From Escherichia phage HX01, in sequence record NC_018855.1: a stretch of DNA of 64,000 nt, one strand, 5' to 3'. Within the stretch, counting starts at the first letter, position 1; the number at the start of each line of letters is the position of its first letter. This document shows positions 1 to 42,415 of this stretch, in pieces. The notes beneath the pieces are model-generated. The model saw only the letters and a program-made list of their open reading frames with translations. It had not been told where the DNA came from and did no database searches. The position numbers and the translations under genes are program-made.

Positions 1-486
1 TTTAAATCCTTCGTTCACGATACGGTACCCTTTATTGGTGTCGGTTAAAGAACCAAGACCACGAGAGGAAACACCTGGAATCCAACCAGCTCGTATATTA
101 GCAGCTAATTTATCGCCGGGACCATGGTCGCCTTCAATAATTCTAGCACGTCCATATACATCGTTTCCTTTCCACCACATATCTTCAATAATGATAGCGG
201 CTTGCATAGGGTCAACATTTGCACGAGGTGGATGGTTTAATTCTCCAAGGGCTTGTTTGGTTGCGACTTGTTCTTTAATATAGTCACTTACTGCTTTTTC
301 CAAAACGCGTTTAGGATATAAACGTTTATTTCGGTTAACAACCTCTGCCTGAAGAAAAATACCTTCTATATAAAGCCCTGGTTTTAAGCCAGAATCTTTT
401 CCATCATGAGATTCCAACATTGGAACGCCATCAATAATCTCACCGGGTTGACCCCAAGTTTCAATAAGTAACTCGGGTTTATTCAT
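1..486 (-). CDS. 21: Prohead core protein/protease gp21, N-terminal part only (gene continues past window start)
   Basis: Minus-strand ORF starting ATG at 486 ([20 protein letters not shown]...), matches T4 gp21 N-terminus by recall; upstream of gene 68 as in T4. Confidence 0.85.
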   Translation of the reverse strand, partial: MNKPELLIETWGQPGEIIDGVPMLESHDGKDSGLKPGLYIEGIFLQAEVVNRNKRLYPKRVLEKAVSDYIKEQVATKQALGELNHPPRANVDPMQAAIIIEDMWWKGNDVYGRARIIEGDHGPGDKLAANIRAGWIPGVSSRGLGSLTDTNKGYRIVNEGFK

Positions 487-28697: not shown

Positions 28698-29432
28698 ATG
28701 GAGCTAATCTTTTTAAGTGGCATCAAACGTAGTGGTAAAGACACTACTGCTGATTACATCAATTCAAACTTTAAATCCGTAAAATACCAATTGGCATATC
28801 CGATTAAAGACGCTCTAGCAATAGCCTGGGGACGTAGGCATGCTGAAAACCCTGATGTATTCACAGAGTTGAAATACGAATACTTTGAAGGCATTGGATA
28901 CGACCGTGAAACACCATTAAATCTCAATAAGTTGGATGTTATTGAATTATTGGAAGAAGCGCTAATTTATTTGCAAAGTCAATATTTACCAATTAATAAT
29001 GTTAAAGTATTATCATCGTTAGAAGGTGGATATTCGTATCTAGATATTAAACCATATGAAGCCCTGCGTGAAGCTATAAATAATATCAACGACACATGGT
29101 CAATCCGCCGTCTTATGCAAGCCCTCGGTACGGATGTTGTCGTTAATTTATTTGACCGTATGTATTGGGTTAAACTTTTTGCATTAAACTATATGGATTA
29201 TATTGGAAGTGATTTCGATTACTATGTCGTAACCGATACACGTCAAGTCCATGAAATGGAAACCGCTAGAGCGATGGGTGCTACAGTTATTCATGTGGTT
29301 CGCTCTGGTACGGAATCCACCGATAAACATATTACAGAAGCTGGGTTGCCTATTGAAGAAGGCGATTTAGTTATTACAAACGACGGCTCTTTAGAAGAGC
29401 TTTATTCTAAAATTGAAACAATCTTAAGGTAA
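28698..29432 (+). CDS. 1: dNMP kinase gp1
   Basis: MELIFLSGIKRSGKDTTADYI... P-loop; near-identical to T4 gp1 over its length by recall. Confidence 0.9.
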   Translation: MELIFLSGIKRSGKDTTADYINSNFKSVKYQLAYPIKDALAIAWGRRHAENPDVFTELKYEYFEGIGYDRETPLNLNKLDVIELLEEALIYLQSQYLPINNVKVLSSLEGGYSYLDIKPYEALREAINNINDTWSIRRLMQALGTDVVVNLFDRMYWVKLFALNYMDYIGSDFDYYVVTDTRQVHEMETARAMGATVIHVVRSGTESTDKHITEAGLPIEEGDLVITNDGSLEELYSKIETILR

Positions 29433-30199: not shown

Positions 30200-30487
30200 A
30201 TGAAAACCTATAAAGAATTTATATCACCTGTTGCTAACGTTTCTACTCTGACTGAAGCAACCCTTACTTCCGAAGTTATTAAAGCAAACAAAGGCCGTGA
30301 GGGTAAACCAATGATTAGTCTAGCTGACGGCGAAGAAGTAAAAGGTACTGTTTACTTAGGAGACGGGTGGTCCGCTAAGAAAGATGGCGCTACTATTGTT
30401 ATCTCTCCGGCTGAAGAGACTGCACTGTTTAAAGCTAAGCACATTTCTGTAGCTCAGCTTAAAATTATTGCAAAAACTCTTCTGTAA
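30200..30487 (+). CDS. ipI: Internal protein I-like (capsid-targeted)
   Basis: 95 aa, N-terminal MKTYKEFI capsid-targeting-like sequence; position after 57B. Confidence 0.7.
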   Translation: MKTYKEFISPVANVSTLTEATLTSEVIKANKGREGKPMISLADGEEVKGTVYLGDGWSAKKDGATIVISPAEETALFKAKHISVAQLKIIAKTLL

Positions 30488-31994: not shown

Positions 31995-32069
31995 GGCCCT
32001 GTAGCTCAATGGGAGAGCTGTCAGCTCATAACTGATAGGTAGCTGGATCGAAACCAGCCAGGGTCACCA
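31995..32069 (+). tRNA. tRNA with CAU anticodon (Met or Ile2-type)
   Basis: Hand-folded cloverleaf: acceptor GGCCCTG/CAGGGTC, U8A9, D-arm GCTC/GAGC, anticodon loop CTCATAA, T-arm GCTGG/CCAGC, encoded CCA. Confidence 0.8.
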
Positions 32070-32072
32070 ATC

Positions 32073-32149
<77 letters not shown>

Positions 32150-32167: not shown

Positions 32168-32512
32168 ATGAAAGGCAATATTTATCTGGTAGTTCATGAC
32201 TTAACGTTTTATTTTAACGAACGTGAAACAGTTATTTCCGATAGGTTAATTAATTCGCTGTATCAGCATGCTGATTATGTCTATTTTCAAAATGAATTCG
32301 GACATTGGAAGTTTCTTAAAAACCGTTCCGGGTTAACTAGTTTTGAATACTTTGACCGTAAAGACCTTTTAAACGAAATTCCATTACAACATCGGTTCCA
32401 GAAACGCGAATCACTATACTATTGTCGTCATATACCAAATGCTGAATGTGTTGATGAAGTAATTAATCTATGGCGTAGACGTAGAGAACAAATTGATGAT
32501 ATGTCAAAATAA
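32168..32512 (+). CDS. Hypothetical protein
   Basis: 114 aa from ATG 32168 with GAGGAAAA RBS just after tRNA-Arg. Confidence 0.5.
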   Translation: MKGNIYLVVHDLTFYFNERETVISDRLINSLYQHADYVYFQNEFGHWKFLKNRSGLTSFEYFDRKDLLNEIPLQHRFQKRESLYYCRHIPNAECVDEVINLWRRRREQIDDMSK

Positions 32513-32610
32513 GAAGCCGGGTCGCTACCGGCAAGTCGTCGGACTGATGTTCCCTGAGTAAGGACTGGTCTTAATAAATCTTTATGATTTGTTAATATCC
32601 CCTTACATCA

Positions 32611-32772
32611 CAGCAGAAACGGCGCAAAGAATTATCGATTCGAGGAAATATCTTTGCCGTAAGCCGAGTAGCGTTTTTGACGGAACGTTCGGATATGGTC
32701 GAGATATGGCCTTTTAAAAATATTGAGTAGCGTCAACTGCTTAATAACCGGGTTCGAATCCCGGCGTTTCGT
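32611..32772 (+). ncRNA. Candidate tRNA-like stable RNA (T4 rnaC/rnaD analogue)
   Basis: Non-coding stretch with canonical T-arm CCGGG-TTCGAAT-CCCGG and possible acceptor pairing GAAACG/CGTTTC; no ORF; ends before a terminator. Confidence 0.3.
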
Positions 32773-32814
32773 ACAAACACTTGCCTTAGTAGGTGGAAAC
32801 CCCGACAAGGTATA

Positions 32815-32843
32815 TAGCCCCTTCCGAAAGGTTGGGGCTTTTT
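32815..32843 (+). terminator. Rho-independent terminator
   Basis: AGCCCC...GGGGCT hairpin followed by TTTTTT. Confidence 0.7.
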
Positions 32844-32844
32844 T

Positions 32845-32852
32845 GTATAAAT
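32845..32852 (+). promoter_or_regulatory. T4-type late promoter (TATAAATA)
   Basis: TATAAATA directly after the terminator, 37 nt upstream of the 32889 ORF. Confidence 0.55.
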
Positions 32853-32888
32853 ATAGTAAACAATAAACCTACTTTCTAAGGACCAGCA

Positions 32889-33515
32889 ATGTATACTTTT
32901 AATGAATTTTTAGCCGAAACGGAAGTAATCACCGAAGCCGGTGTACGTATGACAAAAGAGAAATGGCAAGCTGCTTACGATGCTATTTCTGGTACAAAAA
33001 CTAGTACAGAGTTTTTCAAAAACGTTCAAGCCATGTATGGTATCGACACTTCCAGCCAAAAAGAATATTACAGAGCTTCTAAAGCATTCAAAGATATTGT
33101 TAGTGGCGGTGTTTCTGCTAAATCGGGTTCGCCTAAAGTAAAACCTGCTCCTACCGTTCCTAAACCTGCGACCCCTAAAGCAATAGCAAAACCTGAGCCT
33201 AAGCCGGAAGTAAAAGCAACTCCTAAAGCTCCTGCTCTTAAGTTTGATACTTCTAGCCTGGAAAAAAAATATAAACAACTATCTTCGCTTGTTCGTGATA
33301 TTGAATCCGATACATCTTCACTCGTTCGTGAATTCAACAGTCTTCGTAATGGCCAACATATCAACAACCTTGATACCCCAGACCTTTATCGTCTTTATTT
33401 GACTATCGAAGGTTTGAAGTATACTCAACCACTTCACGATGCGATTAAAGAAAAACTTCGTCAGGCAGGTCGTTTGGCTGCTGACGCTGCTCAGTATGCA
33501 AAAACTCGTAAGTAA
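32889..33515 (+). CDS. Internal-protein-like capsid-targeted protein (novel IP candidate)
   Basis: 208 aa; N-terminal MYTFNEFLAE resembles the IP capsid-targeting sequence with a gp21-type LxE cleavage site; Lys/Pro/Ala-rich repeats; late promoter upstream. Confidence 0.6.
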   Translation: MYTFNEFLAETEVITEAGVRMTKEKWQAAYDAISGTKTSTEFFKNVQAMYGIDTSSQKEYYRASKAFKDIVSGGVSAKSGSPKVKPAPTVPKPATPKAIAKPEPKPEVKATPKAPALKFDTSSLEKKYKQLSSLVRDIESDTSSLVREFNSLRNGQHINNLDTPDLYRLYLTIEGLKYTQPLHDAIKEKLRQAGRLAADAAQYAKTRK

Positions 33516-33567
33516 AGAATGGGGACTTCGGTCCCCATTAGGGGGTCTATAACTTACTGAAAAAGTT

Positions 33568-33596
33568 GTTTACTTCTTCCCTAGATGTGTTACTAT
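33568..33596 (+). promoter_or_regulatory. T4-type early promoter
   Basis: GTTTAC, 17-nt spacer, TACTAT. Confidence 0.5.
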
Positions 33597-40770: not shown

Positions 40771-40792
40771 ACCTCCTATAAACGTGGGAGGT
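40771..40792 (+). promoter_or_regulatory. RBS-sequestering hairpin upstream of e, with late-promoter-like TATAAA in loop
   Basis: ACCTCC-TATAAACGTG-GGAGGT; 3' arm is the e Shine-Dalgarno, as described for T4 e. Confidence 0.5.
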
Positions 40793-40795
40793 ATT

Positions 40796-41284
40796 ATGAA
40801 TATATTTGAAATGCTTCGTAATGACGAAGGTCTTAGACTGACTTTATACAAAGACACTGAAGGCTTTTGGACGATTGGCATAGGCCATTTAGTAACAAAG
40901 AACCCATCTTTAGCCGTAGCTAAAGCTGAACTTGACAGAATGATCGGCCGTAAATGCAACGGTACAATTACCCTTGATGAGGCTGAAAAGCTATTTAATG
41001 AAGACGTTGATAAAGCCGTTCGCGGAATCTTGGGTAATGCTAAACTTAAACCGGTATACGATTCTTTAGATGCGGTTCGTCGTTGTGCATTGGTCAATAT
41101 GGTCTTCCAAATGGGTGTAGCAGGCGTCGCCGGTTTTACTAATTCTCTTCGTATGCTTCAACAGAAACGTTGGGACGAAGCGGCAGTAAATCTAGCCCAA
41201 TCTAAATGGTATCGTCAGACACCCAATCGCGCGAAACGCGTAATATCAACATTTAAAACAGGAACTTGGAAAGCGTATATATGA
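40796..41284 (+). CDS. e: Endolysin (T4 lysozyme) gpe
   Basis: [32 protein letters not shown]... very close to T4 lysozyme by recall. Confidence 0.92.
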
Positions 41285-41549
41285 AAACATATAGTGAATT
41301 TTTATCAGAATCTATTCTTAACGAAGCTACTGACACATTTGCAACTAAGTTAGGTGCAGCTTTGGTTGAAGCCGAAAGTCTATTAGCACGTATTTTAAGA
41401 TAGATACTCGCAAATTTGAACGTACCAGTGATATCGTTAAGCTTGAAGCCTTGTTGCGTATGTGTGATAAACCGGAAGAAATCGCTAAGAACGGCTCGCT
41501 GATGAAACAACGTCTTGAAAAATATATTTCAGGCGCTTCAGAAAAATAG
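41281..41549 (+). pseudogene. Internal-protein-like gene interrupted by a frameshift
   Basis: [10 protein letters not shown] capsid-targeting-like start, in-frame TAG at 41401 after 40 codons, coding continues in the -1 frame for 48 codons to 41549. Confidence 0.45.
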
Positions 41550-41550
41550 T

Positions 41551-41605
41551 GTTTACTTCCTCCAAGGGTTTTGATACTATACATTCATCAACTACTTGGA
41601 GGAAA
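41551..41605 (+). promoter_or_regulatory. T4-type early promoter with long stem-loop enclosing -10 and denV RBS
   Basis: GTTTAC, 18-nt spacer, TACTAT; 10-bp inverted repeat TTCCTCCAAG...CTTGGAGGAA whose 3' arm is the SD. Confidence 0.55.
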
Positions 41606-41607
41606 TT

Positions 41608-42021
41608 ATGACTCGTATCAATTTAACACTTGTTTCTGAACTGACCGACCAACATCTTATGGCTGAGTATCGTGAATTACCACGCGTATTTGGTGCAGTC
41701 CGTAAACATGTTCAAAACGGTAAACGTGTAAAGGATTTTAAAATCTCCCCGACATTTATCTTAGGCACAGGTCATGTAACATTCTTTTACGACAAACTCG
41801 AATTTTTACGTTTACGTCAAATCGAGCTAATCGCTGAATGCTTGAAACGTGGTTTCAAAATCAAGGACACGACTGTCCAAGATATTTCCGACATCCCTGC
41901 CGAATTTCGTAATAATTATGTCCCGACCGAAGCGTCCATTGCGATAAGTCAAGCTCGTTTAGATGAAAAAATTGCTCAACGTCCTACTTGGTACAAATAC
42001 TATGGTAAATCAATTTACTAA
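41608..42021 (+). CDS. denV: Endonuclease V (pyrimidine-dimer glycosylase) DenV
   Basis: [34 protein letters not shown]... matches T4 endo V by recall. Confidence 0.92.
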
Positions 42022-42052
42022 GGAAAAAGGTTGCGATGGTAAAGCTTAAACA

Positions 42053-42082
42053 GTTTACGCTTAAGTATTAATATGGTATAAT
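42053..42082 (+). promoter_or_regulatory. T4-type early promoter
   Basis: GTTTAC, 18-nt spacer, TATAAT. Confidence 0.55.
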
Positions 42083-42112
42083 TACTCTATCAAAACAAAC
42101 AAGGAAACAAAA

Positions 42113-42415
42113 ATGAAAACATATCAAGAATTTATTACTGAAGCGCGAGTGAGTGCAGGTAAATTAGAAGCCGCTATAAATAAAAAGGCCCATTCATTTC
42201 ACGATTTGTCCGATAAAGACCGTAAGAAACTTGTAAGCCTTTATATTGACAAAGAGCGTATTCTCGCTCTTCCTGGCGCTAATGAAGGTAAACAGGCCAA
42301 GCCTTTGAATGCTGTTGAAAAGAAAATTGATAACTTTGCTTCTAAATTCGGTATGTCTATGGATGACCTTCAGCAAGCGGCTATCGAAGCAGCTAAAGTA
42401 ATTAAAGGTAAATAA
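42113..42415 (+). CDS. ipII: Internal protein II-like (capsid-targeted)
   Basis: 100 aa starting MKTYQEFITEA (canonical capsid-targeting sequence). Confidence 0.65.
   Translation: MKTYQEFITEARVSAGKLEAAINKKAHSFHDLSDKDRKKLVSLYIDKERILALPGANEGKQAKPLNAVEKKIDNFASKFGMSMDDLQQAAIEAAKVIKGK

Follow-up and report, generated by a model that had tools for sequence, protein, structure and literature searches.

We consider, with a probability of roughly 80%, that the 208-aa ORF at 32889..33515 encodes a basic internal head protein that is expressed late, targeted by its tag and processed by gp21, a member of a new and unannotated family located at a polymorphic locus of T4-like phages. [quoted passage not shown] The window, meaning the entire 64-kb stretch of DNA that was analysed, derives from a JS09-like Mosigvirus, a T4-type coliphage, and over the 1.3 kb around the 208-aa gene it shares 99.8% identity with phages pEK20 and HY126. 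The gene and the elements that surround it are the following:

32509-32626, + strand: homologue of the T4 stable RNA rnaD, 86% identity to T4
32635-32773, + strand: homologue of the T4 stable RNA rnaC, 98.6% identity to T4
32816..32844, + strand: terminator of the upstream tRNA/rnaD/rnaC operon (hairpin 32816-32839 plus T-run), left boundary of the cassette
32846..32853, + strand: TATAAATA, -10 element of a T4-type late (gp55) promoter, 35 nt 5' of the ATG
32878..32882, + strand: Shine-Dalgarno AAGGA, 6 nt 5' of the ATG, read from the sequence
32889..33515, + strand: CDS of the putative internal head protein precursor (phrog_2280), ATG start, 208 aa plus stop
32889..32936, + strand: propeptide with the tag MYTFNEFLAE (residues 1-10), predicted gp21 cuts after E10 and/or E16
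32937..33113, + strand: small helical N-domain, residues 17-75 (AF2 helices 23-31, 39-50 and 57-72; pLDDT ~80-88)
33114..33242, + strand: Lys/Pro/Ala-rich disordered basic linker, residues 76-118 (pI 10.4; pLDDT <50)
33243..33512, + strand: three-helix C-terminal domain, residues 119-208 (pLDDT 83-93 over the helical part, 122-206)
33518..33539, + strand: GGGGAC-UUCG-GUCCCC hairpin that ends the transcription unit, right boundary of the cassette
33568..33596, + strand: T4 early-type promoter of the next gene, GTTTAC-17 nt-TACTAT, read from the sequence

A terminator, TATAAATA, the ORF and the UUCG hairpin together form a self-contained unit, which sits as an insertion with the tRNA/rnaC operon on one side and an early promoter on the other. 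Folding gave -16 kcal/mol (z -3.4) for the hairpin at 32816-32839 and -15.5 kcal/mol (z -3.0) for the UUCG hairpin, and hairpins like the latter are also located 3' of the family gene in other genera. The early promoter lies outside the unit and represents the return to early transcription; the same arrangement precedes e.8 in T4. The 330-nt stretch 5' of the gene, which had appeared to be non-coding, was identified by BLAST against T4 as rnaD and rnaC, and a hypothetical ORF annotated to end at 32512 adjoins rnaD. An Rfam search of this upstream stretch returned two tRNAs only, and Rfam holds no model for rnaD or rnaC. The terminator is kept in T4, where it directly follows rnaC and closes the tRNA/rnaC operon. 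Homology to T4 extends across rnaC and the terminator but is lost at 32848, exactly where TATAAATA begins, so the unit is an insertion or deletion cassette.

The first-pass annotation had proposed that a terminator and a late promoter precede the ORF, and both sequence elements are in place: TATAAATA directly follows the terminator hairpin and its T-run. In T4, the late promoters that gp55-RNA polymerase reads consist of TATAAATA elements. The motif is not enriched in the window (12 copies, 8.5 expected), so the motif count was dropped as a measure of significance and conservation was used in its stead; the weight we give to TATAAATA comes from its placement and its conservation in relatives, not from its count. 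An ATAAATA core is found 34-45 nt 5' of the start codon in 12/12 homologous loci from several genera, six of them with a perfect TATAAATA and the rest with GATAAATA, CATAAATA or AATAAATA, and in the relatives a terminator-like hairpin mostly lies just 5' of the core. No sigma-70-like promoter was predicted on the + strand near the gene. Judged from these promoter features, the gene is probably transcribed late. Two more TATAAATA motifs of the + strand lie within coding sequence, at 29075..29082 (gene 1, 5' of 57A) and at 42175..42182 (ipII).

The ORF starts with MYTFNEFLAETEVITEAG, and its first 10 residues, MYTFNEFLAE, resemble the MKTYQEFIAE of T4 IPII and IPIII, while T4 IPI starts with MKTFKEFTST...ITE. 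The LxE site described in the first-pass annotation is real and is one of two prohead-protease-type sites, LAE at residues 8-10 and ITE at residues 14-16, the second located before AG. The experiments of Mullaney and Black established that the first 10 residues of IPIII are enough to package foreign proteins, with targeting determined mainly by residues 4 and 7 and processing by residues 8 and 10 (reviewed in PMC9026906). With F4, F7, L8 and E10, the 208-aa protein matches the T4 capsid-targeting sequence at 4/4 of these functionally mapped positions. This likeness is beyond chance: when all possible starts in the window that are followed by >=50 codons before a stop were scanned (n=1066), the pattern M-x-x-[FYW]-x-[ED]-[FILV]-[LIV] matched only three starts, those of the IPI homologue, the IPII homologue and the 208-aa ORF. 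At position 4 the 16 diverged relatives have F or Y, at position 7 F or I and at position 8 L, I or V, and 15 of the 16 have E at position 10, while identity elsewhere drops to about 25-40%, with the N- and C-domains at 20-45%. Across genera, no other feature of the family is as persistent as the N-terminal tag. A second [LIV]-x-E lies right before a conserved AG-x-RMTK in most family members, an arrangement that recalls the two-step propeptide of IPII and the 19-residue propeptide of IPI.

The protease predicted to act on these sites and a recognised internal protein are encoded in the same window:

1..470, - strand: N-terminal part of the gp21 prohead protease (Pfam Peptidase_S77, E 3e-89)
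30200..30487: IPI homologue (Pfam IPI_T4, PF11634, 1e-49), 2.4 kb upstream of the 208-aa gene

The genes for gp68, gp67 (which matches Pfam GP67) and gp20 adjoin that of gp21. The gene order of the window corresponds to the T4 map on its minus strand (gp3, gp1, 57A, 57B, ipI, trna.4-.2), and trna.4-.2 is followed by tRNA-Met and tRNA-Arg (31995-32149) and then by the 208-aa gene.

Absence of the protein from virions had been set as the result that would speak against a packaged protein, and published proteomics point the other way. ESI-MS/MS of CsCl-purified particles of the Mosigvirus vB_Eco_mar005P1 detected only five proteins, namely the tail sheath, the prohead core protein, the major capsid protein, an Alt-like ADP-ribosyltransferase and the hypothetical protein MAR005P1_00015 (Michniewski et al. 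2019, PMC6563131). MAR005P1_00015 (LR027390.1, VCU44362.1), annotated in GenBank as 'confirmed structural protein by MS', is the orthologue of the 208-aa protein, with 99% amino-acid identity, membership of the same 90% cluster and the same location after tRNA-Met/tRNA-Arg. A 99%-identical protein is therefore present in purified virions. The 2019 report gives the virion association only and mentions neither the targeting tag, the cleavage sites and the late promoter nor the wider family. The proposal that the internal protein is new consequently holds in part: its virion association was already published, but the tag went unrecognised there and the database records still read 'hypothetical'.

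The packaging of all members is less clear. The Jiaodavirus ValerieMcCarty04 carries the distant allele VMC04_131 (WKM80661.1) with a tag one residue shorter, MKFKDFLTE, and the published deep virion LC-MS/MS table of this phage contains no peptide match to it. The same table does list WKM80658, 80662 and 80663, which lie near VMC04_131, as well as the internal proteins WKM80648 and 80649, and IPII and another internal protein are abundant in these data, so packaging may not hold for every allele. This missing allele, together with the fact that one proteomic study only backs packaging, would also suit a late cytoplasmic protein that is not packaged and that entered the mar005P1 spectra as carry-over contamination. 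We regard this as extremely improbable, since the orthologue is one of just five proteins in CsCl-purified particles, the other four are abundant and genuine virion components, and the targeting tag and cleavage sites are conserved. A structural protein located elsewhere on the particle (capsid surface, neck or tail), its tag likeness being coincidental or vestigial, is very unlikely as well. The MS data place the orthologue in virions and no finer, and Pro/Ala/Lys linkers are known in surface and fibre proteins too; however, no other N-terminal feature is as well conserved as the tag among alleles with swapped domains, the tag fits all four experimentally mapped positions, and the 208-aa protein resembles no known capsid, neck or tail protein.

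In the internal head protein mechanism that we propose, gp55-RNA polymerase would transcribe the gene late and the N-terminal tag would dock the precursor on the scaffolding core during prohead assembly. The gp21 protease would then cut after Glu10 and/or Glu16 to release a basic mature protein of ~21 kDa with a pI of ~9.7. This protein would remain in the head amid the packaged DNA, its Lys/Pro/Ala-rich linker probably resting on the DNA phosphates, and would exit the head with the DNA at infection. More precisely, the predicted mature form has 192-198 aa, 21.2-21.9 kDa and a pI of 9.7-9.8. The first-pass annotation's assignment as a capsid-targeted internal protein is supported by the tag kept across genera, the late-promoter core, the gp21 protease and a size and pI like those of IPIII*.

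An AlphaFold (AF2) model based on a 12-sequence alignment (mean pLDDT 72.5) divides the protein into four parts, with a helix that covers the tag and a disordered stretch at about residues 74-113. The small helical N-domain is common to alleles with other C-domains. The linker (residues ~76-118) contains 10 K+R in 43 residues and is made of imperfect 17-31-nt repeats that differ in length and sequence among homologues. The Lys/Pro/Ala-rich repeats proposed earlier therefore stand as a rich stretch, but the repeats are imperfect and TRF found no clean tandem array in the linker. The C-domain is 64-76% identical across Dhaka-, Winkler-, Teguna-, Kanagawa- and Kagamiyamavirus, and Pfam, PDB and specific fold matches to it are all absent; Pfam and PDB sequence-profile searches gave nothing usable for the mature protein either. 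An internal duplication of DTSSLVREFNSL had also been described, which proved overstated. Only DTSSL (at residues 120 and 141) and SSLVR[D/E] recur, the latter encoded by two direct 18-nt copies that are 89% identical and separated by 33 nt, and the claimed 12-residue duplication did not hold: the second copy is not kept in homologues, and we rejected a true duplication in favour of a 6-residue recurrence only.

The long-helix domains of this model are also what would be expected of a prohead core or scaffold accessory that aids head assembly and is largely degraded or kept as fragments and not delivered intact. We consider this unlikely, although several observations suit it. The prohead core protein was detected in the same mar005P1 virions, so that detection alone is no proof of an intact, deliverable protein; IPIII itself alters the head assembly rate (PMC9026906); and synteny across genera with a conserved C-domain suits a phage-internal partner over a fast-evolving host target. 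However, the protein has only four [LIV]-x-E sites, two in the propeptide and two internal ones that are not conserved, which makes extensive gp22-like fragmentation unlikely, and the gene is missing from T4 and many relatives, so it is not needed for assembly.

Of the known internal proteins, T4 IPIII shares the 10-residue tag with its L/I-x-E cleavage site (BLASTP aligns residues 1-26, E 0.001), and IPIII* has 183 aa and a pI of 9.65, to be compared with the predicted mature form given above. Both are dispensable accessory genes with a late promoter, a predicted one in the case of the 208-aa gene. Beyond the tag BLASTP found no sequence similarity between the two proteins, and none of IPI, IPII and IPIII is homologous to the 208-aa protein outside the tag. 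The loci also differ, the 208-aa gene lying after rnaC and T4 ipIII next to e, as does the architecture, since IPIII is unlike the combination of helical N-domain, PAK linker and three-helix C-domain. A replacement of IPIII by the 208-aa gene was rejected because the family gene and ipIII occur together in S143_2, ESCO47 and AnYang. T4 IPI is tag-bearing, processed, packaged and injected, and IPI* inhibits the GmrSD type IV restriction system (PMC9026906), a precedent for tag-bearing internal proteins as counter-defence effectors. The 208-aa protein is 2.5x larger than IPI and all-helical, and PF11634 (IPI_T4) gave no match to it at E up to 0.1. Polymorphic T-even internal-protein genes, ip4-ip13, were reportedly described by Repoila et al. 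in 1994, and an allele of the present family may be among the ORFs of that study. Proteins of this type (Ip9 in IME08, ip5 in VR20, phrog_3499) are unrelated in their mature parts and have the tag alone in common, and, as with the 208-aa gene, their locus is allelic between related phages; unlike them, the 208-aa gene belongs to phrog_2280 and is flanked by the terminator of rnaC and the early promoter of e.8.

The 208-aa protein matches phrog_2280 ('unknown function') over its full length with E 1.1e-57. An exhaustive profile search of 1.8 billion representatives gave only 13 clusters of the family, and all named members are annotated 'hypothetical' in the databases. Its hosts are T4-like phages of E. 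coli, Shigella, Klebsiella, Enterobacter, Serratia and Yersinia; the relatives that we compared were taken from Dhaka-, Winkler-, Teguna-, Karam-, Marfa-, Kanagawa- and Kagamiyamavirus and from metagenomes. The gene is found neither in T4 nor in many relatives, and it is syntenic across many genera. The tblastn records comprise 137 of the JS09 type and relatives, 165 of the RB14 type and 58 with a swapped C-domain. Phage RB14 carries at the same place a collinear but very diverged allele, RB14ncORF136c (187 aa, MKTYAEFLTE...), and other alleles show splitting, tandem arrangement and exchange of the C-domain, as follows:

RB69, L014, 2929..3491, - strand: RB69ORF149c and RB69ORF148c, halves of one member equivalent to RB14ncORF136c (RB14, L015, 701..1264)
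fHe-Yen9-01, L004, 3001..4116: tandem members gp154 (MLQYNEFLKE) and gp153 (MLEYSEFLKE), 10 nt apart
ValerieMcCarty04, L016, 1198..1782: VMC04_131, which keeps the terminator, TATAAATA and the N-module and differs in the C-domain

In RB69 the RB14-type allele is split by a frameshift in the reference record (AY303349). Full-length phrog_2280 matches were obtained for RB14ncORF136c and for both gp154 and gp153 of fHe-Yen9-01, and matches to the N-terminal half only for Q7622 and VMC04_131. The Kanagawavirus Q7622 and the Jiaodaviruses keep the N-module, which is 76% identical to that of PG7 over residues 1-92, and have a C-domain unrelated to that of the 208-aa protein, the one that occurs in the 58 records. 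P0026 carries yet another C-domain, which brings the C-terminal types to at least four (JS09/CHI14, RB14, Q7622/Jiaodavirus and P0026). The identities of the N- and C-domains are uncoupled between genera, which points to recombination in the low-complexity linker.

These exchanges allow a broader reading that we hold as possible but doubtful, namely that T-even phages have, at the rnaC-e.8 junction, a third and so far unrecognised polymorphic locus for internal proteins, in which a shared delivery module would carry exchangeable C-terminal cargo that serves as injected counter-defence effectors. The delivery module would comprise the tag, the small helical N-domain and the basic PAK linker; the C-domains would be exchanged by recombination in the linker, and each might neutralise a different host defence at DNA entry, in a role that would parallel that of IPI* against GmrSD. 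Proteins injected with phage DNA act before phage gene expression and are therefore prime candidates for first-line counter-defence. That the 208-aa protein in particular could be an injected anti-restriction effector, as the first-pass annotation had suggested, we purely infer. The data are compatible both with an IPIII-like role (head assembly or DNA handling) and with an IPI-like role in counter-defence. Accessory distribution and cargo-domain swapping speak somewhat for an effector; the H1-like linker and the strong conservation of the C-domain from host to host speak somewhat for a role that is phage-internal or related to DNA. In the reviews consulted on the T4 internal proteins, IPI alone has an assigned target.

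The phrog_2280 family is widespread in therapeutic-type T4-like phages, where it is annotated 'hypothetical' only, and recognising its members as tag-bearing and virion-associated corrects this annotation. The family also illustrates how, in nature, a modular packaging tag can be combined with exchangeable cargo. In conceptual terms the advance is modest because this kind of protein is well established and the virion association was already published.

Further along the window, the region 40784..42415 (+ strand) has the order e, a broken ip5-like gene, denV and ipII, while the T4 order is e, ipIII, ipII and denV; a tblastn search found ipIII nowhere in the 64-kb window. The broken gene, at 41281..41549 (+ strand), is tag-bearing, belongs to phrog_3499 ('internal head protein', ip5/RB69ORF127c type) and overlaps the stop codon of the lysozyme gene e. 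A 13-bp deletion (CTGAACTTGCTAG, after 41395) leaves an ORF of 39 codons, whereas the 93-aa gene is intact in each of the 237 database relatives, among them HY126, which is otherwise 99.8% identical.
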